Shown here: in pieces, positions 4,648 to 37,282 of the stretch | How the letters are laid out: each line of letters starts with the position of its first letter | Numbering within the stretch: the first letter of the stretch is position 1 | Virus record (IMG/VR): IMGVR_UViG_3300014153_000004 | Coordinates: 1-37,282 of that record | Strand: one strand, 5' to 3' | Source: a virus | Lineage: Duplodnaviria > Caudoviricetes | Length of the DNA: 37,282 nt | Made by a program: the position numbers and the translations under genes | The notes under the pieces: generated by a model | The model's input: the letters and a program-made list of their open reading frames with translations, nothing else | Told to the model about the DNA's origin: nothing | Database searches by the model: none

Positions 4648-5012
4648 GCTGGTTTCTCCTCTGCCGCCACCTTCGCAGCGGCTTCACTGGCTACCCGATG
4701 TGCGATTGAGTCTTGCTCTTGCTGGGCCTTGATTGAACGCTTCAAGATTCGTTGCCAAGGCGTGCCCACTTCCTGGTCATCGAGCGCTGGAGGTGGCGCG
4801 TCATCCGGCTTGAGCGAAACATTCTGCAATTGCGGGGTGAGCAGGTAGCGCGTTCTAGTCAGCTCATCGCGCAACTCATTGGAAATGGTTATAGCACGCT
4901 CCAGTTCCGAAGCGTGAGTCTTTTCTATGCGTGCGATCTCCTCGCGGTGGCGTTGCTCCTGCTTTTCGAGTTCTTGCTCAAGCCAGATGGTGTGACGCGA
5001 AGCGAATCTCAT
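4644..5012 (-). CDS. Coiled-coil hypothetical protein
   Basis: E/R/Q-rich helical sequence; ATGA overlaps at both ends. Confidence 0.7.
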
Positions 5013-5596
5013 TTCTGGGAACTCCTTGCTTTACGCTTGACCCAACCTGCTCTTATATTCGCCCTAGCTTGCTCGCTGCACGGACGCCGATTCAACCCCT
5101 GTTCAGAATGCGTCGCCCAGCGACAATTTCCGGGTTCATAGTTACCGTCGTTGTTGATTCGGTCAATGGTTAGTCCGATTGGCTTTCTTCCCATATCCAC
5201 AAAGAAATTCTCAAAGGACTCAAGCCAACGCGGGCAGATTTTGATTCCTCGTCCACCATAATCTTTGTATTTTTTGTTTCTGGGATTGAGGCATCGTTGG
5301 CGCATGGATTCCCATGTTTTATATTCACGAGTGATTCTTCCGTGGAAGGATTGTCCATGCTTCAATTGAGGAATGTTTTTGAGCATCAGAGCACGCGAAG
5401 TGTCACGTACTAAACATCCGCACGATTGTACTTGCCGTTGCGTCAAATGAGTTCCCTTGACAACTTTGAGATTCCCGCATTGGCAAAGAGTCAGCCAATG
5501 AACATGACGACCATTAATTCCCGCTGGCCACTGTGCAGTGAGACGTCCAAATCGTTTTCCTGTTAAGTCGTGCATTGGTCTTCCAGGGTATCTCAT
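5009..5596 (-). CDS. HNH-family homing endonuclease
   Basis: [58 protein letters not shown]. Confidence 0.85.
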
Positions 5597-7254
5597 TATT
5601 TTTTGAACCTCTGTTGCCAGGTCGGAATGATCTTGGGTGGACCGTCACCCTTTCTCTGCCGTGCCTGTTCGAGATTATACTCTTTAAATTGTTCAATATG
5701 GCGGCGAAATGGGTCCTTGATTCCTGCCAGCTTTTCCCTGAGCAACTGTTCTTTAGGCTTCTCGCCTTCGAGCAAAACACCAGCCACAGCATAGCGCAGA
5801 GAGTCAGCACAATCATCTTCTAAGCTACTGCCCTTCGGTTTTATCACGTCTTCCATCGAACACGTCGTACCATTCCCACGAACCAAGAGCGGAATGGAAT
5901 CAACGCAGGCAGGACATTCTCCCTGGAGCAAGAACCATTCGTCGGTATCTAGCATCTCGTACATTTTTGTCCATCCCGCGATGCGATCATTGTTTGAACG
6001 TGTCGGGCGTGGAAGTCCAGCGGCCTGAAGTAAATCTCCGATCTCATCAGCCACAGTTCGATTGCTGACCGTGCGATTAAAACGCTCCCATGAGAGATGA
6101 ATGCTGTCTATTTCCCAAGCGTAGCCAGTTTCACGACCCTCATCATCATGAAGACGGGGAATAGCCAAGATAAGAGCACTAGTTTGCTGCTCCACCGTTT
6201 TCTCTTCAAGAACCACTTCCTTCAGTGTGACATTTACAAGGCGCGGTTTCTCACCATCAAAACGTGGTTTCAACACAGCTTTGGTCCAGAAAGTCATCAC
6301 TGACGAATGCGAGAAACCCCAGTCGTAGCCCACCCAAACAGGTTGCCACTGTTCAAATATGAATGCGCTCTTCGGAAGAATGTGGCGCTTCGGGTCCCAA
6401 TTAGAGAAGTACTGCCCGCTGACCGTTTCGAGTTTGCCCCAACGGATCTTGTCGCGCAGCGGCGACTTCTCAAGCGAGCGTATATACCCTTTGTCGCGAA
6501 TCAGGATGGGATTCTGGTCCACGGTCGAGTGTATATATTGATAGTCCTTCGGGTCGTAAGCCGCTGGGTCCATCCCGTGACACGGCTGGTGGTCCACCCA
6601 CACTTTCTTGATCCAGCCCCACCCGATGCCCATGGGGTTGGTCACGCCGGCCATGCACGGCCGCGAGCCATGAATCGTGCAGCGGTTGCGCCCTTCCATC
6701 GCGTCATAGATCAGATAAGGAAATTCGCCCAGCTCCTCGAAGCCGATGAACACGAACTCAGTGGAGAGATATTTCCCCACGTCCTCAATGCGGTCGCACG
6801 CACCAAAGTAGAGTTTGCTCTGCTTCCATACTTTCTTTTGCTCGCCAGTTTCGGGATCAATAATGGGTGTGTCCGTGTCGGGGTCCCAGTCATCCACGAG
6901 AACGGGAGGGAAGTACACGATGTGGTCTGACTTGTTGTAGGTCCCGCGCTCTTGTGAACCGCGCTCGTACAGCGACTTAGGGATATCGTTCTCGAACTTA
7001 TCCAAAACGGTGCGCTTCAGATCGGGGATGGTGCGGCGAAGGATGATGCTGTTCGAGCCTGGAAATTCAATGCAGTGGATAATCGCTTCCATGAGCAAAG
7101 GACGCGACTTTCCAGAACCGAATCCGCCCACGTGCAACCTGTGCTTCGCGGGAAGACAGTGCCAGGCATTCTGGTGGGACCACGGTTTATAAAAGTCCGT
7201 GATTCTCAGCACTTCATCTTCGCGGTATTCGAGAGTGGGAGAAACGCTGGCCAC
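5596..7254 (-). CDS. terL: Terminase large subunit
   Basis: Walker A GGFGSGKS, Walker B FIGFEE, coupling motif TNP, nuclease GYDWG and [10 protein letters not shown]. Confidence 0.95.
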
Positions 7255-7280: not shown

Positions 7281-7337
7281 CGCCGCCCCGTATCGGAGTT
7301 CCTCTTTGGGGTTTCCTGACACGGTAAAAACGGCGCG
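7281..7337 (-). other. Long hairpin followed by U-rich tract upstream of terL (small RNA or terminator/attenuator)
   Basis: CGCGCCG/CGGCGCG outer stem; CCGUGUC/GAUACGG and GGA/UCC inner stems; followed by CAUUUUAUUU. Confidence 0.5.
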
Positions 7338-7341
7338 AGAA

Positions 7342-7394
7342 GAGTATATATCACTCTCGCGTGCCTAGCTCTGGATACTTTGGGATATATACTG
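7342..7394. promoter_or_regulatory. Operator pair (TATATA-core palindrome)
   Basis: GAGTATATATCA 7342-7353 and GGATATATACTG 7383-7394; - strand TATACT at 7343-7348. Confidence 0.65.
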
Positions 7395-8432: not shown

Positions 8433-9113
8433 TTACGCCGCTCGTGTTTCGTTCGCTAGTTTCAGGAACTCCGCTTCCGCCGCTTCGAGCAGTAACTTCT
8501 GACTGAGCGCGGTATCCTCTGGCGGAATCTCGTGCGCGTTGTGTGGATGGATGCAAAAATAGCTCTGCACTTTCTTTGTCTCTGGATGGAGACGTTCCAC
8601 GCGACATCCAGGCTTAACGCGATAGAGCCGACCGTTCACGTCCAGTTCAAAGACGCCTTCCTTCACGTATTGCTCGCGCTGTTTCTTCGAGAGCACGGAA
8701 CTGAGAGTCTTCTTGGCTTTCTCGCGCGCTTCCGCGGTCTTCTTCTGACGCTCTTGATAGGCGACTTGCGCTGCAGCTTCACGCTCTTCGCGGACAATAC
8801 GTTGTTCGTCTGTTTCCGCGTAGCCTTGACATGCAAGCATCTGGACGGTCTGGACCTGCGTTTGGCCGAAGCCATAATCGCCGTTCCATTGCACCCAAAC
8901 ATTCCCAGCGTTAGTGCCACCCGTGAGATAGTACTGATTCCATCCGCACCACACGGCATTCGCTGTGGTCCCAGCCGTAGTGCCTTGGATGTAGTTACTG
9001 TTCCAGTCTTGCCACACAGTGACAGCATTCGTCACGCAGTTCACGGTGTTTCTGGTCGTGTATCCTTGGTTCCAGGCGTCCCACATGACGCCTGTTGGGC
9101 TGAAGCCGACCAC
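8433..9113 (-). CDS. WxxWNxxY-repeat protein with C-terminal Cys-containing domain; partner of the GG-terminal protein
   Basis: Four repeats WDAWNQGY/WQDWNSNY/WCGWNQYY/WVQWNGDY, coiled coil, then FCIHP...IPPEDTALSQKLLLE...FLKLAN; starts 2 nt after upstream stop. Confidence 0.85.
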   Translation of the reverse strand: MVGFSPTGVMWDAWNQGYTTRNTVNCVTNAVTVWQDWNSNYIQGTTAGTTANAVWCGWNQYYLTGGTNAGNVWVQWNGDYGFGQTQVQTVQMLACQGYAETDEQRIVREEREAAAQVAYQERQKKTAEAREKAKKTLSSVLSKKQREQYVKEGVFELDVNGRLYRVKPGCRVERLHPETKKVQSYFCIHPHNAHEIPPEDTALSQKLLLEAAEAEFLKLANETRAA

Positions 9114-9115
9114 GG

Positions 9116-9373
9116 TCAGCCGCCGACCATCCGCGGAACCATAATGATGCGTTCCATGCTCGGATCGAACTTTGTGATTTGCTTCCCTTTGCGGCCATCG
9201 TCGCCCTCGGCTTGGAAAGCGAGATACTGCTTCTTGATAAGCGAATCGAACATCTCTTCGGCCGCATCTACCTCGACACGCTTTGTGCGATCCCAGATGA
9301 GTTTGGTGTCGCCGGATGGGTCAAGCATCTCCATCACGCCTTGCGTTGGTTCAAGAACCACGATTTCTTCCAT
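9116..9373 (-). CDS. Small protein with C-terminal Gly-Gly (ubiquitin-like candidate)
   Basis: 85 aa, SD GGGAGG, ends IIMVPRMVGG-stop. Confidence 0.8.
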   Translation of the reverse strand: MEEIVVLEPTQGVMEMLDPSGDTKLIWDRTKRVEVDAAEEMFDSLIKKQYLAFQAEGDDGRKGKQITKFDPSMERIIMVPRMVGG

Positions 9374-9412: not shown

Positions 9413-9811
9413 TCAGCGGCCCCGTTTCTTCTTTTCCGGTTTCGCTAGTGGACCACCGCCAAGAGCTTTTCGTCTAAAGTCACATACGCCACATTGGCAA
9501 GAATCGGGGTGTCGCGCGGCGGCATAAGCGGCCTCGGCCGCAGGGCGAGCGGATGGCGCACTTCCACTTGGCTCATCAGATCGCGCAGATCCGCGAGCGC
9601 GCCGTCGAGCCAAAGGTAGGTCTCGAAGCCCAGCGGCGTCCTTCTGATCACGAACTTCATGGCCTGCCTCCTTCCTCGGCGCTGCGGTGTGTTTCGCACA
9701 CGCTTCACGTATCCATTCCGCGAATTTCATTCTTCGCGCTTTCGCGGCTTTCAGGAACTCCGCGTAAAGCGAGTCATCCAACTTCAACAAGTATGTTTTC
9801 ACGCGCCTCAA
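9413..9811 (-). CDS. Ribbon-helix-helix DNA-binding protein with C-terminal His/Cys motif
   Basis: KTYLLKLDDSLYAEFLKAAKARRMKFAEWIREAC; HPDSCQCGVC; directly downstream of promoter/operator. Confidence 0.7.
   Translation of the reverse strand: MRRVKTYLLKLDDSLYAEFLKAAKARRMKFAEWIREACAKHTAAPRKEAGHEVRDQKDAAGLRDLPLARRRARGSARSDEPSGSAPSARPAAEAAYAAARHPDSCQCGVCDFRRKALGGGPLAKPEKKKRGR
9445..9660 (-). CDS. Possible overprinted 71-aa gene inside the RHH gene
   Basis: AGGAGG 6 nt before ATG; MKFVIRRTPLGFETYLWLDG... in an alternate frame. Confidence 0.4.
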   Translation of the reverse strand: MKFVIRRTPLGFETYLWLDGALADLRDLMSQVEVRHPLALRPRPLMPPRDTPILANVAYVTLDEKLLAVVH

Positions 9812-9824
9812 CCTTCATCGAGAA

Positions 9825-9865
9825 GAGTATATATGGTAATCGGTTTGAGTCAAGAGTATATAAAG
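9825..9865 (-). promoter_or_regulatory. Sigma70-type promoter with two operators
   Basis: TTGACT-16-TATACT; sites GAGTATATATGG and GAGTATATAAAG. Confidence 0.75.
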
Positions 9866-13782: not shown

Positions 13783-14187
13783 TTATTTTATACGCTTTGC
13801 CCAAGCGTTGCAGGCTTCGCGTATCCAGTGGGAAAGTGACTGCTGTTCACGTTTTGAACCTCGTTTGAAAATCCGTAGTTCATTGGCGTAAAGGCGAATA
13901 TGAAGATGTGCATTTCTCGGAAGACCCTGATGAGGAACATTTCTGCTAATGATTGCTTTGCCGCGCCGCACGTTGCATTTTTGGCAGACTGGTACTACCT
14001 CAAGAGGTTTGGCGTAATCGCGGTGATCATAATGATTGGCTCTTTCAGGGCAATCCGCACAACGAATCTTTTGAGTTTTCAGGTTTGGTAGTTCTCCGGC
14101 CAACACAGCACGATGAGTGATTTGTTGGGCTCGTCTTGCAGCGCGAACATACGGCAACCGCTTATCAGATTGCTGTGGATACTTCAT
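13783..14187 (-). CDS. HNH domain fused to a C-terminal ribbon-helix-helix domain
   Basis: CADC...DHRDYAKPLEVVPVCQKCN then HLHIRLYANELRIFKRGSKREQQSLSHWIREAC. Confidence 0.75.
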   Translation of the reverse strand: MKYPQQSDKRLPYVRAARRAQQITHRAVLAGELPNLKTQKIRCADCPERANHYDHRDYAKPLEVVPVCQKCNVRRGKAIISRNVPHQGLPRNAHLHIRLYANELRIFKRGSKREQQSLSHWIREACNAWAKRIK

Positions 14188-15421: not shown

Positions 15422-16291
15422 GTGGCAAGTAAATCGGGTATCACGCCGCAAGGCGCGACAGAAATCATTCCCTCAACGGAAATGCCTCAGTTCAACGAGG
15501 CACTCGCGAAGATGGACGGTTTGGAATTGGAGTTAGAGCCTCTCTCGAAGGAAGCACGCGAACTCAAGATCACGGATAAGCCTTCACGCGAACGCGCCGG
15601 CGTTCTCAACGCGCAATTCAAGGACATCCAGAAAACGGGTGACGCGACCCTCGCGACGTATGATGCCATCGTGAAGCGCGTAAAGGACTTCATCCAGACG
15701 CGAAAACTCCGCGTGAAGAATCGCGCGGAAGAAGCCCGCGGCATCCTTATGGGCAAGATGGGCGACTGGGATCGCGCTGAAGAGGCAGCGGCGAGGGCGG
15801 AAGAGGAGCGCAAGAAGCGCGAGCTGCAAGCAACATTGGACCGCCAAGCGGAAGAAAAGCGCCAAGCGGACGAACAGGCCGCAAGAGAACTCCGCGTGAG
15901 TCGCGTTGCCGAAATCCGCGCTGACCTCAAGGCGGGAAAGATCACCAAGCGCCAAGCGGAGAAGTTGCTCCGCGAAGCTGGCGCGATGGAAGAAGCGCTC
16001 AAAGCCAAGGCAGCGGCCGACCAGGAAGAAGCGAAGACGCAATCCGCTAAGGTCGTGGAGACCGTGAAGGTGGAAACGAACGTCCCGATAGTCCCCGGAA
16101 ATGTGCGTCGGAAAAATTGGCGCTTTCGCGTGGTCAACGCGCAGCAAGTGAAAGTGCGCTATCTCTGCCCGGATGAAGTGAAGATCGGTGCCGAAGTCCG
16201 CAAACTCACGAAGGATTCAACCGACACGGACAAAGCCGCGATAGAGATGGAAGTCGGCGGCATCGAAATATATGAAGACAGGTCCTATTGA
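15422..16291 (+). CDS. Long coiled-coil protein of the recombination module
   Basis: SD AGGAGG; long E/A/K/R helix; C-terminal RRKNWRFRVV...GGIEIYE. Confidence 0.75.
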   Translation: MASKSGITPQGATEIIPSTEMPQFNEALAKMDGLELELEPLSKEARELKITDKPSRERAGVLNAQFKDIQKTGDATLATYDAIVKRVKDFIQTRKLRVKNRAEEARGILMGKMGDWDRAEEAAARAEEERKKRELQATLDRQAEEKRQADEQAARELRVSRVAEIRADLKAGKITKRQAEKLLREAGAMEEALKAKAAADQEEAKTQSAKVVETVKVETNVPIVPGNVRRKNWRFRVVNAQQVKVRYLCPDEVKIGAEVRKLTKDSTDTDKAAIEMEVGGIEIYEDRSY

Positions 16292-16821
16292 TGGGCAGAA
16301 ACACTTCACACACATGGAAATCGGAGTACAGCAGGAAATGGTACGCCAAGAACAGAGAGCGGTTTCTCGCTTACTGTAAGGCACGCCGTCGTGGACCACG
16401 AAGAGAACACTTCCTTCGATTGGAACGGATCGCCAGCCATAAAAGGCAGATTGAAGGGAGGAGAAAAGTTACTCCAAGAGATAGAGAAATGATGAAGAGA
16501 TGTCGGCAGAAAAAAGGCGGGGCTTACATCTCATGGGATGCCATGGTTCAGCGATGTACAAATCGCAAAAATCCCAATTGGAAAAACTATGGCAGGCGTG
16601 GAATCAAAATCTGCCCGAGATGGAGAACATTCGCATTCTTTCTGGCAGATATGGGGCCACGCCCAGAGGGAAAAACTTTAGACCGTTTCCCTGACAACGA
16701 TGGCAACTATGAACCTGGGAATTGCCGCTGGGCTACTCGCAAAGAGCAGTTAGCAAATAGGAGGAAATATCGAACTTCGACTACTAGATCGATGGAAAGA
16801 CTACGCAGACGCGTGCGTTGA
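16288..16821 (+). CDS. HNH-family homing endonuclease
   Basis: [49 protein letters not shown]. Confidence 0.85.
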   Translation: MMGRNTSHTWKSEYSRKWYAKNRERFLAYCKARRRGPRREHFLRLERIASHKRQIEGRRKVTPRDREMMKRCRQKKGGAYISWDAMVQRCTNRKNPNWKNYGRRGIKICPRWRTFAFFLADMGPRPEGKTLDRFPDNDGNYEPGNCRWATRKEQLANRRKYRTSTTRSMERLRRRVR

Positions 16822-24470: not shown

Positions 24471-24677
24471 TTACTCGATGACTGTCACGTTCGCGGCTTG
24501 GGGGCCGCGTTCGCCTTTTACAATCTCGAATTCCACTTTCTGGCCTTCCTTCAATTGCCGGTAGCCTTCGCCATTGATCGCACTGAAATGGACAAAAACA
24601 TCGGGACCTTTTTCGCGCCCGATAAAACCGAACCCTTTCTGCGCGGAAAACCATTTTGTGATTCCAGTTTCTCTCAT
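24471..24677 (-). CDS. csp: Cold-shock domain protein
   Basis: KWF..QKGFGFI (RNP1), DVFVHFSAI (RNP2), [20 protein letters not shown]. Confidence 0.95.
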
Positions 24678-25129
24678 GCAGCTCTCCTTCGCAATCTCTT
24701 AAATTCCTTTGCTTTTTCTCGTCTGCATTTTAAGCAATCACGCCACCTTGGATGGTCCGGCCTATGATATGTATTTGCAGGAACAAATTCATGGCCGTTG
24801 GGACAATGTGTCTTTCTAAAATTTCTAGCGGAGCGGCCATTGCCTCTTAGAATGTTGATCCTCATAGTGACCGGCTCAAGATGGTTTGGATTACAACATC
24901 TGGGAACTCTACACAAATGATCCAATGTTAATCCTTCAGGTATAGGCTCTCGAAGTAGACTCCAGATGAACTTATGGGCTTCCCACTTTTTATAATGGAC
25001 TGTGATTTGTCCATAGCCATGACCATTAGGAGCCGTGTTTAGAAGCCAACAATCACTTTTCAAACTGGAAATTGGACATTTCACTGGGACGATTTTACGG
25101 CGGACAAAATCTGGAAGTCGTTCAAGCAT
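24674..25129 (-). CDS. HNH homing endonuclease
   Basis: CW...GYG...AH...[22 protein letters not shown]; KTHCPNGH zinc finger. Confidence 0.9.
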
Positions 25130-29015: not shown

Positions 29016-29078
29016 CTACGACAACAAAATTTTCCCGATGATCGTGGGCACTGTTCCGCCACCAGTAGCGGTGACATT
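29016..29078 (-). pseudogene. Stranded duplicate 3' end of gene 29484..30170
   Basis: NVTATGGGTVPTIIGKILLS* versus NITATTGGTVPTIIAKILLA*; 16/20 aa identical. Confidence 0.9.
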
Positions 29079-29473
29079 CAATTGATCCTCGCCCAATGTT
29101 CATACACCCTACAAATCCAATCTCGAAAATCAGATTGGGTTGTCTTCAACTTGGCCTTATTACATGTTTCACAACACGGAACACAATTGCCCAGAACATA
29201 TCCTTTAGTGCTATCGATACGATCAATTCCGTACCCTGTTTCTGGGAGTGTTCCACCGCAATACTCACAGGGCTTGCTTCGTAATTTTTTAAATTCTTCA
29301 AGCGACAAACCGAGTTCTATTCCGCGCTTCTTCGCCCAATAGACCAAACATGAATACCGGACGCCATCTTTGCGCGAATTCTTATATTGCGCCAGACGCG
29401 CTCTCTCTGGATGACGAAGGCGCCATCTCTTCGCTCTGATGCAATCATCTTTTCTGCGTTCTGCAAGTGTCAT
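29078..29473 (-). CDS. HNH-type homing endonuclease
   Basis: AKKRGIEL.LS.EEF..L...CEYCG...GIDRIDSTKGYVLGNCVPCCETCNKAK. Confidence 0.85.
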   Translation of the reverse strand: MTLAERRKDDCIRAKRWRLRHPERARLAQYKNSRKDGVRYSCLVYWAKKRGIELGLSLEEFKKLRSKPCEYCGGTLPETGYGIDRIDSTKGYVLGNCVPCCETCNKAKLKTTQSDFRDWICRVYEHWARIN

Positions 29474-30605: not shown

Positions 30606-31565
30606 TTAGGAAGATAGCACAATTTCCGCTTCACGGGGAAGATTTACAGAGTTCACCTTCCGCGGAAGACTGCCGATGGAAAGTTCCGAAGTAAATTCAC
30701 TGCTCCAGCCATCTGGAAGTGTCACGCGATATTTGAACTGGCGCGGCAGAAGTTCGTGGCCGATCTCGCGTTCCACATTACTGCGCTCCATGACACTTGC
30801 GCGCCAGTAGGGATCATGGGCAAAGCATTCCACTTTGGCCACGCGACTCGCGAAGGTCGGACAGTCATCGAAGAAAGCCTCGTACTGAATGAATCCCCCG
30901 CGGTTGTAACCGCCCCAGCCCTGATGTTGGACCTTCGCTGTCGCGCACCAAGCGACTTGGAGTTTCTCTTTCATGATGATGCGCTGCAGGAGCCCGTCAA
31001 GCTCGTAATGAACCACATCGGGATAAAGTTTGTTGATCGGATTCTCGGGGAAGTTCTCCGCAACGTACTTCCACATATCCGCGTAGTAGAGCGGCCCGAG
31101 GTAGGGCACCACCAGCGCAAGTTTCTCGCGGCGAATCGAGAATTGCGGTATATATATCCAGGGCACGAAGTATATATCTTCAGTGAACGGCATGTGGTGA
31201 TTGAACACCCATCCGCACGTGCAGAAAATATCGTCCCACTCTTCGTGCGTTGCGCGAGTCCACGCAAGAAGATCCGGCTTGGCAAAGGCATCATCTTCCA
31301 CGTAATGCACGAGTTCAAATCCCGCGTTGTATGCGAAACGCAGAGCTTCTCCAGCGTTGAAGGAGTTCCCGAGGAACTCGTGCTTCGGTTGAAGGATGAG
31401 TGTCGCCCCAAATTTTTGGCAGATTTCTTCCAGTTCAGGACTTGTCTCGCCGCGGTCGGAGAACACCACGATAGGCACGTCGCTGTCCTGACCGCGCAGC
31501 CGACGAAGACAACCGTGGAGAAGTTCTGGCCGGCGATATGTGGGCACCACACAACATTCTTTCAT
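30606..31565 (-). CDS. Glycosyltransferase (GT-A/GT2-like)
   Basis: VVPTYRRPELLHGCL, VVFSD, YVEDD. Confidence 0.85.
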   Translation of the reverse strand: MKECCVVPTYRRPELLHGCLRRLRGQDSDVPIVVFSDRGETSPELEEICQKFGATLILQPKHEFLGNSFNAGEALRFAYNAGFELVHYVEDDAFAKPDLLAWTRATHEEWDDIFCTCGWVFNHHMPFTEDIYFVPWIYIPQFSIRREKLALVVPYLGPLYYADMWKYVAENFPENPINKLYPDVVHYELDGLLQRIIMKEKLQVAWCATAKVQHQGWGGYNRGGFIQYEAFFDDCPTFASRVAKVECFAHDPYWRASVMERSNVEREIGHELLPRQFKYRVTLPDGWSSEFTSELSIGSLPRKVNSVNLPREAEIVLSS

Positions 31566-32326
31566 TTTGCCTCCAAGTACAGCGCCTCGTAACGCTTAAG
31601 ATCCTGAGACCAATATCCAGTCATGAGGAATAGTCTATCCATCCGCTGGATCACTTGATCGTGCAATTCCTGAGGAGTCCAAGGGTGAAGTTCCACGTAC
31701 ATGAATTTCACTTGCTTGAGTTTCTCTTCCGACACGGACATCAGTATCTCGGCCTCGCCGCCCTCAATGTCCATCTTGATGCAGTCCCAAATCTTGTCTC
31801 CGAGGGCTTCGTCAAAGGACAGGCACGGAACTTCAATAAATTCGATGGTTCCCGGCAGATCGTGAACCCCTGGGCAGGAAGCCCTTCCGTTATGCCAGAT
31901 GATTTCGCTGCCCTCATCAGGAACGGTATGGCTCTCGAAGCGGACGGTGCCACTTCGCGTGTAGATAGCAACACAGCGCGCTTCCACTTTAGGAAATTGA
32001 CGGACCACCGTTTCCAAAACGCGATAGGTAGAGGGATCGCATTCATAAGCTGTCACCAAAGCGCCGTTCGCCGCGCAGAAGGCGGTGTAGATGCCCACGT
32101 TGGCTCCGACATCCATCACGCGCTTACCAGGCGCGGGCTTGAAGAGCTTATTGGCTGGTGCCCAAGTCCTAGAATCTCCTAGCACGATTTCCCGCACCAT
32201 GTGATAGTTGTTCGTCACGTCCATGGCCTTGGTGAACTCGGGATGCTCCGTTGCGATCCGTGCCCAGACTGAATCTCTATCCCTTGATTGTTCTTCTCGC
32301 AAGCATCCTCCCGGCCGCGCCGGCAA
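31562..32326 (-). CDS. FkbM-family methyltransferase
   Basis: VMDVGANVG, IKMDIEGGE, YVELH. Confidence 0.9.
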   Translation of the reverse strand: MPARPGGCLREEQSRDRDSVWARIATEHPEFTKAMDVTNNYHMVREIVLGDSRTWAPANKLFKPAPGKRVMDVGANVGIYTAFCAANGALVTAYECDPSTYRVLETVVRQFPKVEARCVAIYTRSGTVRFESHTVPDEGSEIIWHNGRASCPGVHDLPGTIEFIEVPCLSFDEALGDKIWDCIKMDIEGGEAEILMSVSEEKLKQVKFMYVELHPWTPQELHDQVIQRMDRLFLMTGYWSQDLKRYEALYLEAK

Positions 32327-33239
32327 GCGCTATGTGTTTGTCGCGGCATTTCAGCAAACGGGCCACCCATTGGGGATTGTCTTCGGTTTTGCTTTTCTCT
32401 TCGCACTTGCCCGCCCATCCTCTCGCCCACTCGATCTCCAGTGCCAATCGTTCTTGTTCGTTGTTGGCTGAGGATGCAGCGTTGCGGCGGTCAAATAAGG
32501 GGAACATGTCATCCAGTCCATATATCGGCTGCGTACCGTCCAGCTTGAGCGGGCCATAGTTGGCTACCGAAGGGCGCTCTCCCATCTCGATTTCATAGGT
32601 CAATGCCCACGCCAAGGCTACGTTGCTGAATCCCGTGTACTCCTCAAATGCGCCTCCGGTCGCTTCGTGAGCTTGATGAACGGCTTTCGCGTCTATTTGC
32701 ACCACGGGAATGCCGCGGCGATTGAGCAGCCAAACAAAGAAACTGTCTTCGCAGCCGTACCCGAAAAACTGTTCCTCGAAACCGCCCATGGCCTCGAATG
32801 TGCCACGCCTCAATGCCTGGGGCCTAGCACCTACGATCCCAGTGACGTAATGACCCTCGGGCATCTTGGCCTGGGCCACCGCTAGACAGTCCTGAGATCG
32901 AACGGTTTCCGCGAGTGGCGCAATAACGCTTCCTTCATGATAAGTTTCTCCATCGTGCATCACGAGAATGTCACCCGTTGACGCTTTCACGCCAAGGTTG
33001 CGCACCACAGCGATGCTCTGAAATGCCGGATAGTATTCGGCTCTAACGTGACGGACGTACTTTGCTCCATATTCACGCGCGATCTCTTCGGTGAGCCCAT
33101 CGTCATCGTCTTCCGCGACAACGATTTCCAAACCGGGATAGTTCTGCTCGTGAATTGATCGCAACGTGGGACCGAGTTGCTTGGCGCGATTGAAGCAGAG
33201 AAGAATTATGGAAACGCTAGAAAACGAGTCGATCATCAA
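32277..33239 (-). CDS. Glycosyltransferase family 2 (GT7C-like C-terminus)
   Basis: SIILLCFNR, EIVVAEDD, RNLGV..STGDILVMHDGE, MGGFEEQFFGYGCED. Confidence 0.9.
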   Translation of the reverse strand: MMIDSFSSVSIILLCFNRAKQLGPTLRSIHEQNYPGLEIVVAEDDDDGLTEEIAREYGAKYVRHVRAEYYPAFQSIAVVRNLGVKASTGDILVMHDGETYHEGSVIAPLAETVRSQDCLAVAQAKMPEGHYVTGIVGARPQALRRGTFEAMGGFEEQFFGYGCEDSFFVWLLNRRGIPVVQIDAKAVHQAHEATGGAFEEYTGFSNVALAWALTYEIEMGERPSVANYGPLKLDGTQPIYGLDDMFPLFDRRNAASSANNEQERLALEIEWARGWAGKCEEKSKTEDNPQWVARLLKCRDKHIALAGAAGRMLARRTIKG

Positions 33240-33948
33240 ATTTGCATTCCCCCGCCCGTCCGTTGCTATGCCCGCTTCGCCTCATATTCTGTCCCGTGCC
33301 CTCGGGGTCGTAGACCGTGAGCTTCCAATCTTCCCAGGCGCCATAGCAACAGGATGAATATATCGCGTCCTCGATGAAGGTGCGGCACTGTGGCGAAAAG
33401 TGCGCTTTCAATTTCGCGCGGTAGAAATCGGCTGAGGCGAGATGAGGCCGCTGGTGCCACTGATTGGTTTTTATCAGATACGGAGTCAAGTTGCCCAGCA
33501 TCATGTGCTGGTGATCGGGATGAATCGTTTCGTCATAGTGCAAACGGATATGGTTCGTCGCGTGGGAAGCGAGCATGCTTTTGAGCATATCCCAGTGGAT
33601 GAAAGCGTTCACGAGCGGCGTATCATGCTCGACAAAGAGTATATACGGAGCGGTCACGAGTTCCAGCGTCTTCATAGTCATGGCCGCTTGGTGCGTGAAC
33701 TCCTCGAAAGGCACCAGCGAGATATTCTTCCATTTGAACACGGAGAGTCCCACGAGGCGCTTGATGTATTCGAGATAAGCCGCTTCGCGATCTTTCTGCT
33801 CTTCGCGGAGGCCGTCCAGCATGATGTACACGCGCGACTCGGGAAGATGATAGCGAATCGAGGCCAACGTCTCTTCGATAATCGCCGTGCTCGGATGGCT
33901 GGGAATGACCGAGGAAGAGATGAGCACCGCTATGTCTTTGTCAGGCAT
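33217..33948 (-). CDS. Putative glycosyltransferase (GT-A)
   Basis: SSVIPSHPST.II, IMLDG, YILFVEHD; within the GT cluster. Confidence 0.7.
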   Translation of the reverse strand: MPDKDIAVLISSSVIPSHPSTAIIEETLASIRYHLPESRVYIMLDGLREEQKDREAAYLEYIKRLVGLSVFKWKNISLVPFEEFTHQAAMTMKTLELVTAPYILFVEHDTPLVNAFIHWDMLKSMLASHATNHIRLHYDETIHPDHQHMMLGNLTPYLIKTNQWHQRPHLASADFYRAKLKAHFSPQCRTFIEDAIYSSCCYGAWEDWKLTVYDPEGTGQNMRRSGHSNGRAGECKFDDRLVF

Positions 33949-34796
33949 TGAATATCCTTTTCCAGCCAGGTGTTCCAATCCGCGAGATATCCTTCCCACC
34001 AGGTCAGACACTTATCCCGTAGAACTTCGTAATTGGGGAGCCACTCTGTTTTGAATTGGTGCGGAAATGCGGACCAGTCAGTGACAACAGGGAGAGGATG
34101 ATCGCCGAGCACCAAAGACCAAAAACCGCCAGTGACTTCGTGCAATCCTTCATACCCGCCGCGTGAATCCAGAATTGGAATCGCTCCGCATTGCAAGGCT
34201 TCCCACGGCCGGGCCGAGTCTGGCGAACTGGGGCCGCATGGACACGGTACGAATTTCGCGCGGCTCATCATGCGAAAATACTCTTCGCGGCCTACTCCCA
34301 GCGTGTATCCCTTCGAGAGAACCATGACGACATCCCAATCGAATTGATCGCGCAGTGCGTTCACGCATTCTTTGCGCCTCAAATGTGTATCTTGCCCCCC
34401 GAAAAAGAGAGATAGGTCTTTGGGGACATCAGCCCGTTTGCATCCAAACGTCCAGCCATCGAGGATGTAGCGGTCTGCTTCGTACACTCTGGGCACGGGC
34501 TCTTGGAGCCAAAGCCTTTTGTTTTCGTGGCGGATAAATTCTGGATTGACCATGTGCGTTTCATCGCCAAGCAACACGACGATCACCCACTTTAGTTTTG
34601 CCAGCGAAGCGTTGAGACGAAGTATCTTGTTAAAGCACGATTCTCCATGCACGACCACGACGGCCCCCTCCAAACCATCGGGAATGTCGAGATAGTCATG
34701 CTGGCAATCGTAGGTACTCAGCATTTCGCGCAGCATCACCGTGCAGTTTTTGTGCTCCTGTCCCGCCAAAAGGCCGTACCAGATAACCGGGATCAT
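33930..34796 (-). CDS. Exostosin-like (GT47) glycosyltransferase
   Basis: FFGGQ...Y..MMSRAKFVPCPCG...SARPWEALQCGAIPI. Confidence 0.8.
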   Translation of the reverse strand: MIPVIWYGLLAGQEHKNCTVMLREMLSTYDCQHDYLDIPDGLEGAVVVVHGESCFNKILRLNASLAKLKWVIVVLLGDETHMVNPEFIRHENKRLWLQEPVPRVYEADRYILDGWTFGCKRADVPKDLSLFFGGQDTHLRRKECVNALRDQFDWDVVMVLSKGYTLGVGREEYFRMMSRAKFVPCPCGPSSPDSARPWEALQCGAIPILDSRGGYEGLHEVTGGFWSLVLGDHPLPVVTDWSAFPHQFKTEWLPNYEVLRDKCLTWWEGYLADWNTWLEKDIQCLTKT

Positions 34797-35506
34797 ATCT
34801 GACCTCCCGGCTTGACCCAACACTTCCGGGTGGAATCAAATTCGATGGCGCCATAAGGCTCAAAAAGAAAATGTTCCTCCTGGTCACTGTTCAAAAGAGT
34901 GCGCTTGTAAAAATAATAGTCCATGAACGCATAGAGGTCTTCCGCCTTCTGACCGAAACGTTCTTGCATGAATTGCGGATGCACGGAAATCCAAAAAAGC
35001 GGCCGGATTCTAGTCAGTGTGTGTTTCGCCCCGAGTAGCGCCTGCAATTCCGAGCCTTCCACGTCCATGGTGATTCCGAGTTTTGTGGATGCCAATTGAT
35101 TCACTATGGTATCAATGGTCAAGCGAGGAAGCGCAGCGCAACTTTCGTCTTCGTTCACGTAGTGCAGCCAGCGGAAATCTAACTTGTCATCTGTCCGCAT
35201 GGGATTGCCGCACTGTGGAGGCCATTCGCCAATGTAGAAGCGGGAATTTGGTTTGTCTTCCGACGCGACGAAGCCGGGAAACGCAGCTAGGGGCATCTGC
35301 GAACCATATTTCTTTTCCCAGTTGAGTTTGATGGTGGGCCAGTTGTATTCAGCGGGCTCCACGATCACGAGATTCTCAGGCCCCACTTTGTCAGCGACGA
35401 TGAGGCTGGTCGTGCCATCATAGGCCCCGATGTCAATGAACGTATCCCCTTCGCGCATGTGCTCCAACACGCTGCCAAAGTGTTCCGGCTCGTAAGCGAG
35501 AGTCAT
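34793..35506 (-). CDS. FkbM-family methyltransferase
   Basis: YEPE, FIDIGAYDG, ITMDVEGSE..AL.GA, ISVHP. Confidence 0.85.
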   Translation of the reverse strand: MTLAYEPEHFGSVLEHMREGDTFIDIGAYDGTTSLIVADKVGPENLVIVEPAEYNWPTIKLNWEKKYGSQMPLAAFPGFVASEDKPNSRFYIGEWPPQCGNPMRTDDKLDFRWLHYVNEDESCAALPRLTIDTIVNQLASTKLGITMDVEGSELQALLGAKHTLTRIRPLFWISVHPQFMQERFGQKAEDLYAFMDYYFYKRTLLNSDQEEHFLFEPYGAIEFDSTRKCWVKPGGQI

Positions 35507-36246
35507 GGCGTCACCACTTTCATGCACAGATCACAGTTGGGATTGATGATTCCTCTTTGAAGGTGCCATCGAGTATGAGCACCGAATGGGCCACCGATTT
35601 TCCCACCGATTTTCCCATATTGTCTTTGTTGTTCAGGAGTTCTTAATCTCATTGCCGCACGACCACCCATAACCTGTATTTCGTGAGTTAAGATTTTCCC
35701 GCTTTGATATCTTTTGCGCGCGGCCAAACACATGCTTCTGTGTCCTTCAACAGACATTGGTCTTCGATTCTGCAACTGTTCTCTCCTGGTGGCCCATTTA
35801 CAATTTCCCGGTTCATAACCAAGATCATTATTTTTTCTCTCTATGGTCAATTTCGGATTGAGCTTTAATCCCATGTCTCTCAAAAAATCGGGAAATGACT
35901 TCCTCCATCGCGGACAAACGCATATTCCCCGAGCACCGTAGTTCTTGTAGTTGGTGGATTTTGGATTATGACAACGCTGAATCATGGCATTCCACGTCCG
36001 GTATTCTGGACTAGCCATCCCAAAATGGGTCACTCTATTGTGTCCATGCTTTATATGAAGAGTTCCTCTTCTGCAGCCACAACTGGTACGATCACCCATT
36101 TTCAAAACCCAACCAAGAACAGCCATTTCTTTTCCGCAGCGACATCTACACCACCACAGTCTTCCACGTTTGCTCGCTTTATAATCTCTGAGGACTGTGA
36201 GCCAGCCGAATTCAGTCCGTACCGGCACTTTCAGTGCTTTCGTCAT
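35503..36246 (-). CDS. HNH-family homing endonuclease with C-terminal extension
   Basis: FG.LTV, CRCRCG, SCGC, W.AMIQRCHNP, YGARGICVCPRW, TIERKNND.GYEPGNCKWAT; tail HTRWH...CDLC. Confidence 0.85.
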   Translation of the reverse strand: MTKALKVPVRTEFGWLTVLRDYKASKRGRLWWCRCRCGKEMAVLGWVLKMGDRTSCGCRRGTLHIKHGHNRVTHFGMASPEYRTWNAMIQRCHNPKSTNYKNYGARGICVCPRWRKSFPDFLRDMGLKLNPKLTIERKNNDLGYEPGNCKWATRREQLQNRRPMSVEGHRSMCLAARKRYQSGKILTHEIQVMGGRAAMRLRTPEQQRQYGKIGGKIGGPFGAHTRWHLQRGIINPNCDLCMKVVTP

Positions 36247-37282
36247 GAATAGTTCCCAGTACTGATCTCAATCTTTCTGTCCACGTATCGAATCGCCTTG
36301 CATATTCAGCGCACTCTATTACCTTGGCACGTCTTTCATTTTCATGCGAGAGCCAGTATTCTATTTTCTCGTGAAGGTCAAGCAAATCTTCTGGCCTGAA
36401 GGTGGCAAGTGGAATATTCAGTCCCTCAATCTCTGGCGAGAGAAGAAATCCATAACGCATCGGAGTCTCTACCATTCTGTCAGAAAAATAGAACGGAATT
36501 TTTCCTCCACCGAAACAGTCTCCAATGCACACGCGACATGAAGCGTAGAAATCATTCAAATCATGACCGCGGATTCCCTCAACTAATTTGAACCTATCGC
36601 CGTAGGTCTGTTCGAGAAATTCTATGAGTACGGTTCTGAACTGGTGCTCTTGGTGATACCCTCTCGCGCCAACGAAGGCCACATCGCAACGGAAATTCTC
36701 TCTTGGACAACCTCGATGCGAATAAACTTCGCTCGCAGCGGCAGGCATCCAAATGTGGTTGATTCCAAACTTCTTGAAGTCCTCTTGGCGCGATCCATCT
36801 GCGGTGAATAGATATTGGAGTTTCCAGAAGGGAATCTTTCCGATGAGTTTTTCGCGCTCGGGAATGCCCCAAAATTTGTCCAAATGTACGCCAAAGCTCG
36901 GGATCTTGCGCGCTCGAAGCGAATCAAGGAACGCGAACATCTCGCTATCGGGCACCTTGAGCCAGGTTGGCGTGCGGACCCAGAGGAAGAAGTCGTTGAA
37001 CTCGCTTGCGTCCTCTAGTGCGCGAAGATTCGTTTCGTTCTCTTGGAGCGCTTCCACTTCGTAGCCGAGGCGCTCTTCAAGTGCCCAGCGAATCATGTTT
37101 TCGGTGCTCTCGACGTTCTGGAAGTTCCCGAGGAAGAGGATATTCTTTCCGCTTCTCACTCGCGTGGGTCGCGCTTTCTTCCCGCGCTTCTCTAGGTCCG
37201 CGAGTTGCTCGGCAAAGCGCATCTTAAAATCATCGTTCGCGGAAAGGAACTTGGAGCGCGTGTCTTCTTGGCACTCGGCCAA
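36212..37282 (-). CDS. GT-B glycosyltransferase (CgeB/Glyco_trans_1_2-like), 5' end may lie outside the window
   Basis: CDVAFVGA, R..LIEFL, DLNDFYAS, FSDRMVET...GFLL, TWTERL. Confidence 0.85.
   Translation of the reverse strand: MAECQEDTRSKFLSANDDFKMRFAEQLADLEKRGKKARPTRVRSGKNILFLGNFQNVESTENMIRWALEERLGYEVEALQENETNLRALEDASEFNDFFLWVRTPTWLKVPDSEMFAFLDSLRARKIPSFGVHLDKFWGIPEREKLIGKIPFWKLQYLFTADGSRQEDFKKFGINHIWMPAAASEVYSHRGCPRENFRCDVAFVGARGYHQEHQFRTVLIEFLEQTYGDRFKLVEGIRGHDLNDFYASCRVCIGDCFGGGKIPFYFSDRMVETPMRYGFLLSPEIEGLNIPLATFRPEDLLDLHEKIEYWLSHENERRAKVIECAEYARRFDTWTERLRSVLGTIHDESTESAGTD

Follow-up and report, generated by a model that had tools for sequence, protein, structure and literature searches.

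We describe here two adjacent genes of a tailed phage, one encoding a small protein that ends in a free Gly-Gly (ORF-A) and the other a protein whose C-terminal domain carries an invariant cysteine (ORF-B), which, judged by their sequences, form a real, large and unnamed two-gene family whose members are inherited together. Tentatively, and at somewhat less than an even chance, we propose that a host E1 enzyme of the MoeB/MoeZ (ThiF) type would activate the Gly-Gly end of ORF-A and that Cys187 of ORF-B would take over the thioester for onward conjugation, ORF-B being then an analogue of E2/E3 enzymes with an unmatched fold. The initial annotation of this DNA, which had read the pair as a ubiquitin-like modifier with a cysteine partner, is partly supported by the results presented below.

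The gene pair and its source phage

The window, i.e. the whole stretch of 37,282 nucleotides that was analysed, is a fragment of a tailed phage (the record is 56%-complete) encoding RecT, RusA, an M15 endolysin, glycosyltransferases and the large terminase subunit (5596-7254). An identical ORF-A/ORF-B pair is also found on the IMG/VR contig G001, which is 62,921 bases long and 94% complete. Both genes lie on the minus strand. ORF-A (9116-9373) encodes 85 aa and ends in VPRMVGG followed by the stop codon, the two glycine codons occupying 9124-9119. ORF-B (8433-9113) encodes 226 aa and its GTG start lies 2 nt past the TGA of ORF-A, exactly as the initial annotation had described; translation of ORF-B may be coupled to that of ORF-A.

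The pair had also been placed in a putative repressor-controlled operon behind a promoter at 9826-9853. A sigma-70-like match (10/12) is indeed present there on the minus strand (9853-9826), the window holding 5 such sites compared with 2.4 ± 1.6 in shuffled sequences. This promoter, like the presumed operon, is a local feature that is not conserved with the pair: among 39 viral loci no flanking gene is conserved with it, and the promoter context is not common to the relatives. The -10 box is overlapped by 16 bases (9819-9834) that recur identically at 7336-7351, upstream of the terminase gene and in a stretch that also has inverted repeats; this repeat is possibly a shared operator or a late-promoter element. 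An ORF at 9413-9811 (minus strand), which overlaps another at 9445-9660, has no Pfam hit, and its first 45 residues are presumably those of a ribbon-helix-helix repressor-like protein. Elsewhere, the 37 kb carry six HNH/endonuclease-type genes (5009-5596, 13783-14187, 16288-16821, 24674-25129, 29078-29473 and 35503-36246), the last of them inside a minus-strand cluster of glycosyltransferase and FkbM methyltransferase genes (30606-37282) that is likely to serve glycosylation of the virion or of DNA.

ORF-A ends in a conserved Gly-Gly

With a profile of 19 ORF-A sequences, the family comes to no fewer than 2,269 clusters at 50% identity (873 at E ≤1e-10), mostly from phages. It has no name in four libraries, neither ORF-A nor ORF-B belonging to a family of Pfam, NCBIfam, PHROGs or PADLOC (for ORF-A, PHROGs was scanned with the window copy). 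Among 167 relatives, which comprise the best 150 of the profile search and the ORF-A relatives collected earlier and which were counted by eye, 141 end in GG, a figure that leans upward because the profile itself contains GG. Five more end in xG, the motif is absent in two, and GG is followed by 1-4 residues in 15 and by a long extension in four. With search patterns that contained no GG, 31 of 35 loci still ended in GG, three in AG and one was a broken copy; the background is 16 GG ends in 2,212 ORFs of 60-130 aa. The terminal Gly-Gly, from which the initial annotation had started, is thus a conserved character of the family.

The tail follows a wider pattern, with Pro at -6 (102/110), a hydrophobic residue at -4 and then GG, the whole being present in 99/110. 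In five pair-bearing host genomes, the ThiS-family carriers have Pro at -6 in 9/13 and the whole pattern in 7/13, these 13 being the GG-ended tails, with 3 of the 16 matches left out for want of a GG end. The ORF-A tail aligns in register with these host ThiS/MoaD tails, and this is the main positive hint, drawn from sequence, that an E1 of the MoeB/MoeZ type might read it. The closest named Atlas cluster to ORF-A is also ThiS (score 0.75, to be taken as a lead only), and its Atlas neighbourhood is mostly viral. The ThiS/MoaD family PF02597 was not among the Pfam matches listed for 148 ORF-A members (E up to 1; 25 of 72 families), there was no NCBIfam match, and a comparison of ORF-A and ORF-B with PDB sequences returned nothing meaningful.

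In the predicted model (pLDDT 83), ORF-A has the order strand-strand-helix-strand-strand-strand (E11-18, E21-28, H32-47, E51-55, E63-66, E75-79) of a minimal beta-grasp, with a free tail. Foldseek gave no significant match (best E 0.026), its non-significant top rows being SUMO, PB1, FAT10, RA, NEDD8 and ubiquitin. In a wide fold search, about 40 of the best 50 rows were beta-grasp proteins as judged by their titles, and they covered residues 6-85. The best row had Z 4.7, rmsd 3.8 and 62 aligned residues; BubA (Z 3.7), MoaD (3.4-3.6), TtuB (3.5) and SUMO were also among the rows. A second fold search placed protein L on top (Z 5.3, rmsd 3.4, 58 aligned), and the solved shapes nearest to ORF-A are beta-grasp domains that do not conjugate (protein L, Raf RBD, PB1). 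ORF-A is therefore likely to belong to the beta-grasp fold class, with middling scores that lie within reach of a common arrangement and with no close relative found in these searches. Tandem two-domain ORF-A proteins also exist (P0199, P0214, P0216), and two loci (L033, L060) contain two complete pairs or two nearby GG genes.

ORF-B combines a conserved cysteine domain with a variable N-terminus

ORF-B begins with four V/M-W-x-x-W-N repeats (W11, W34, W55, W73; 8883-9089, minus strand) in a region that is rich in Thr, Asn and Gln and of low confidence in the model; residues 1-123 contain no lysine at all. A long charged helix (residues 102-140; 8694-8810, minus strand) is predicted to form a stalk from the repeats to the conserved Cys domain (residues ~126-226; 8436-8738, minus strand), which is modelled as helix, helix, four strands, helix, helix, strand with pLDDT 86-98. 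Cys187 ends the fourth strand and Asp200 starts the next helix.

The initial annotation had noted an FCIHP followed by a downstream motif, and both are present. The cysteine of FCIHP had been called the only one of the C-terminal domain, which does not hold: two of the five cysteines of ORF-B lie there (170 and 187), and Cys187 alone is invariant. In the 110 paired partners, Cys187 (codon 8553-8555, minus strand) and Asp200 (codon 8514-8516, minus strand) are both found in 110/110, Pro197 in 109, Ala220 in 108 and Asn221 in 103. For Cys187 this count is largely not circular because most loci had been chosen through the ORF-A gene, and this residue is the candidate nucleophile. A lysine had been expected to be invariant as well, but Lys206 is present in only 51/74 and was ruled out as an obligatory acceptor; likewise, His189 (57/74) was ruled out as an obligatory base, being replaced in 17/74 and in most Chloroflexota copies. 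A divergent bacterial subfamily keeps the cysteine, has Glu near the place of Asp200 and has no Asn, so that the cysteine is the sole residue never seen changed. Across the 110 paired partners there is no other conserved Cys or His that could complete a metal site, and the Cys domain of about 100 residues has no evident nucleotide-binding motif.

Fold searches left this domain without a known counterpart. Foldseek found no match for ORF-B in the PDB and one significant row in BFVD, a 268-aa protein without a name (E 2e-5; the homologue of virus Rctr197k has the same length). A wide fold search was run with the full-length query, and its list was filled by the long helix; with the domain searched within the full-length model, the best domain-level row was a phage P1 head chain (Z 4.7, rmsd 3.7, 70 aligned), and the rows listed included no chain of an E2, a HECT enzyme or a protease. 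No E2 family was among the Pfam or NCBIfam matches listed for 65 members, and family scans showed that ORF-B is not MoaE, ThiG or CysM. The spacing from Cys to Pro to helix is one that we take to be reminiscent of E2 enzymes; an E2-like reading of it was unsupported by hhalign, in which the match to an 8-sequence alignment of Prok-E2_E had a probability of 0.2%. Since these searches gave the Cys domain no E2 or HECT match, a structural precedent for acyl transfer is lacking; with the domain searched within the full-length model, an E2-like relation is still conceivable. A beta-grasp fold, which the initial annotation had proposed to look for, is predicted for ORF-A; an E2- or HECT-like fold was not among the matches of ORF-B.

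The N-terminal region, on which the initial annotation had not commented, behaves differently. In 58 ORF-B relatives, W-x-x-W occurs 83 times when 9.9 are expected from shuffles, at least once in 34/58. The motif is found in 58/70 of the paired viral partners, of which 0/70 have a membrane-type helix, whereas such a helix is present in 15/18 of the paired partners from bacterial genomes. This exchange of a Trp motif for a membrane helix indicates that the N-terminus is a swappable module. The Trp repeats and the helix may both be membrane anchors; alternatively, the repeats could be a binding site for ORF-A or for a host protein. The Cys domain is also found in a longer fusion protein of 271 aa, and in two loci (L183:2227-3294 and L184:2985-4073) it is fused behind a Cys/His zinc-finger-like region, presumably SWIM-like, without a GG gene detected alongside.

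The two genes are inherited together in phages and Chloroflexota

An ORF-B relative lies downstream of 110 of the 121 distinct ORF-A genes (ending within 1.7 kb), and its start is within 30 bases of ORF-A in 98/110 pairs. Ten of the 11 unpaired genes are less than 500 bases from the end of their locus and the other is a broken copy, which bears out the fixed adjacency expected of a two-gene module. In one protein, P0183, the two parts are naturally fused in the order ORF-A, GG, linker, Cys domain. Programmed read-through from ORF-A into ORF-B was ruled out, as the gaps between them occur in all three frames. Beyond these two, no gene recurs widely in the 39 non-redundant viral loci (49 minus 10 duplicates or broken copies) or in 40 bacterial stretches. 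The distances of the two proteins correlate (0.61), which speaks for co-inheritance only, and an underpowered co-variation analysis (110 pairs, effective 81) gave L17-L203 as its top inter-protein pair, with z 7.4 compared with 4.5-6.4 in 8 shuffles. What speaks against strict pairing is that a Cys domain lacks a GG gene in L183, L184, L186 and L215 and, as an extra copy, in the phage loci L010, L017 and L090. The last of these, from virus Rctr197k (KX853510.1:110803-119535), carries the pair together with another Cys-domain gene in the interval that separates two annotated CRISPR arrays, and its ORF-A ends in Pro-Gly. In one phage group (L022, L023, L025, L029-L032), the pair is inserted within the replication block, between two genes that we take to be SSB-like and RecA-like.

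The pair is present in many uncultured phages and in some bacteria. ORF-A matches were found in 2 of 50,697 GenBank phage records, both uncultured, and this scarcity might explain the family's lack of a name. A search for RNA evidence listed no record that carries the pair. We found no published description of the pair in the full-text literature, and supplementary family tables could hold it under another name. A narrow pattern picked up three bacterial genomes. A profile search detected the Cys domain, in up to four copies, in 54 of 251 genomes of Chloroflexota, the phylum of the Chloroflexia record G040 (the tally takes in G079, which is marked unpublished). Of the 20 best Chloroflexota loci, 19 have the GG gene directly upstream, and the remaining one is cut by the end of its contig. 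These bacterial pairs often occur in several copies per genome and are presumably membrane-anchored for the most part.

No activating enzyme is linked to the pair

In Pfam scans, none of 118 ORFs, taken from the window and from the remainder of G001, matched an E1, an E2 or a JAB peptidase, which extends to the scanned ORFs of G001 what the initial annotation had stated for the window. ThiF was above the cut-off in 3/40 virus records and JAB (PF14464) in 3/39; these are the same three records, and in none does either gene adjoin the pair. In G035 the ThiF and JAB genes lie 5.7 kb from the pair, together with an 89-aa protein of their own that ends in Gly-Lys, and in the two other records they are about 60 kb away. 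A cognate E1 encoded by the phage was thus ruled out, ThiF being found in 3/40 records, never adjacent, and the G035 copy having its own partners. That copy belongs to a cassette of a large phage (L130, G035:C1:127060-129843) composed of a ThiF-like E1, the 89-aa Gly-Lys protein, a JAB peptidase and a 311-aa protein; in W01 and W02, ThiF and JAB are a few kb apart. PADLOC gave no hit for the pair.

On the host side, ThiF was detected in 45/45 of the pair-bearing Chloroflexota genomes tested (of 54), and since it was also detected in 12/14 control genomes, a host ThiF indicates availability only. The best host E1 matches lie mostly within open frames of 350-470 aa, presumably the size of ThiF-rhodanese fusions.

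Proposed mechanism and alternatives

The mechanism that we propose starts from two genes whose coupling and joint inheritance are shown by their sequences, and from an ORF-A that is predicted to fold as a beta-grasp-type protein and to leave its tail free. The carrier-like tail and the missing linked E1 suggest that a housekeeping E1 of the host would supply the ATP-dependent activation. Cys187 might then accept the acyl group with the aid of Asp200 and Asn221, a role to which the invariance of these residues points. In the weakest step, the N-terminal module may bring ORF-B to its site of action, probably the membrane, and the tag would there be handed on to a target or end up on ORF-B. Without activation, a free carboxylate is unable to acylate a thiol. 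Given this need for activation, the conservation of GG and Cys without a linked E1 argues for a borrowed enzyme, and because ATP chemistry is apparently absent from both small proteins, this enzyme would be a housekeeping E1. MoeZ-type E1s usually end in a thiocarboxylate and not in a handoff to a partner cysteine. In Thermus, the single E1 TtuC activates TtuB, MoaD and ThiS and is required for the formation of TtuB-protein conjugates, according to the part of the report available (PMC3980101). An E1 can also be strict: in the available part of another report, Uba4 did not activate ubiquitin, SUMO or GFP bearing the Urm1 tail (PMC9574740). Against activation by a borrowed E1 followed by transfer to Cys187 stand the 15/167 ORF-A relatives with 1-4 residues past GG and no linked JAB, as well as the existence of Cys domains lacking a GG gene. 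A broader version of the proposal, i.e. a phage-dominated two-gene tagging system whose ubiquitin-like protein hijacks the sulfur-carrier E1 of the host and whose Cys enzyme, unrelated to E2, HECT or RBR enzymes, is held by interchangeable membrane anchors, is possible if doubtful.

The register of the ORF-A tail with ThiS-family carriers, the ThiS label of the nearest named Atlas cluster (0.75, a lead only) and the 350-470 aa of the host E1 frames, which we assume to be ThiF-rhodanese size, would also fit a sulfur relay of the Urm1/CysO type. In such a relay the host E1 would thiocarboxylate ORF-A and the sulfur would pass to Cys187 as a persulfide, conjugation being a by-product, and one invariant cysteine is enough for it. 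Indeed, thiocarboxylated Urm1 conjugates without E2 or E3 and persulfidates target cysteines, as stated in the available part of PMC9574740. Nevertheless, we hold a sulfur relay to be unlikely: in the 39 viral loci and 40 bacterial stretches, the pair has no conserved neighbour that acts in sulfur metabolism, tRNA thiolation or a cofactor pathway, PF02597 is not among the matches listed for 148 ORF-A members, and the invariant Asp200 and Asn221 would have no explained role. It is quite unlikely that ORF-B is a cysteine hydrolase, either maturase or deconjugase, and that the pair is a sink or decoy for host E1s including those of Bil, Bub and CBASS Cap2. The Cys-x-His with Asp and Asn of most phage copies does resemble a protease set, the Atlas clusters are mostly viral, and 15 short and 4 long extensions past GG in the 167 relatives (one of the long ones being the Cys-domain fusion) have no linked JAB to trim them. 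However, His189 is replaced in 17/74 and in most Chloroflexota copies, a protease fold match is absent from the ORF-B fold searches, and 141/167 relatives need no trimming. Moreover, the multi-copy, membrane-anchored pairs of bacteria (54/251 genomes) fit poorly with a purely anti-defence role, which weakens the decoy function that the initial annotation had offered.

Two further explanations dispense with the host E1. If the Gly-Gly tail docked non-covalently in a narrow pocket of ORF-B, with Cys187 being structural, redox-sensing or metal-binding, this would be in keeping with the unlinked E1, the non-conjugating nature of the nearest solved beta-grasp shapes and the existence of ORF-A proteins in tandem form and of Cys domains that stand alone. 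We regard this as very unlikely, since a terminal GG with Pro at -6 in distant relatives and a single invariant Cys are the marks expected of acyl chemistry, and since a metal site would lack a second conserved Cys or His. An E1-free ligase, in which ORF-B would activate or transpeptidate the ORF-A tail with another source of energy, appears highly improbable: its domain has about 100 residues and no evident nucleotide-binding motif, and 141/167 relatives end in a free carboxylate that is unable to acylate a thiol unaided. What speaks for it is that the activator is unlinked in every set examined and that the Cys domain is unmatched in fold searches; in a minority, the extensions past GG could be leaving groups.

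Comparison with known systems

The pair is outside the Bil, Bub, CBASS and ThiS/MoaD families. ORF-A resembles the carriers ThiS, MoaD and CysO (PF02597), which work with ThiF, MoeB or MoeZ (PF00899), in being small and of predicted beta-grasp type, with a tail that is hydrophobic at -4, has Pro at -6 and ends in a free GG. Unlike them, it has no PF02597 match among those listed and no linked E1 or gene of a sulfur or cofactor pathway, and its partner is not MoaE, ThiG or CysM. ORF-B shares with the E2, HECT and RBR thioester carriers the possession of one invariant cysteine (110/110 by sequence).

In Bil (BilABCD) and Bub (BubABCDE), as in our pair, a ubiquitin-like protein with a terminal Gly precedes a partner that has a residue of catalytic type. 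According to the available part of PMC11601596, BubAB is a fusion of a ubiquitin-like protein with an E2, and BubB has Ser-x-His plus Asp; the Cys-x-His and Asp of ORF-B echo this arrangement, and the domain order of P0183 is that of BubAB. However, Bil and Bub encode their own E1, mostly a peptidase, and an E2 of the UBC fold, whereas the pair comes without E1, JAB, PADLOC hit or Prok-E2_E match. According to the available part of PMC1779556, the lambdoid TAPI is ubiquitin-like, is encoded by a phage and ends in a conserved glycine, and to this extent it is like ORF-A. TAPI sits in the tail operon by the JAB/NlpC protein TAPK, in contrast to the pair, which has no PHROG hit, no fixed position and no tail-gene neighbours.

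TtuB-TtuC of Thermus, SAMP-UbaA of Haloferax and Urm1-Uba4 each combine a ubiquitin-like protein with a shared housekeeping E1 and, as far as the available parts of PMC3980101 and PMC9574740 go, conjugate without a classical E2. These systems have no dedicated, coupled single-Cys partner, and the ORF-A/ORF-B pair differs from them also in being largely phage-borne (TtuB gave Z 3.5 against ORF-A). Most plausibly, the pair works like conjugation of the TtuB/SAMP/Urm1 type to which a dedicated Cys acceptor of unmatched fold has been added. Within the parts of the sources available, the bacterial systems compared here fall into two kinds: host defence operons (Bil, Bub, CBASS Cap2), which bring along an E1 and an E2 of the UBC fold, and carriers (TtuB, SAMP, Urm1), which rely on a shared housekeeping E1. 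If our reading is correct, the pair would represent a third design, in which a GG-ended beta-grasp protein is coupled to a single-Cys domain of unmatched fold. The system would be small, comprising two small genes and one host enzyme. Phages themselves would then perform ubiquitin-like chemistry, and the Cys enzyme would be an independent invention of the conjugating step, which bears on how this step arose from sulfur carriers.
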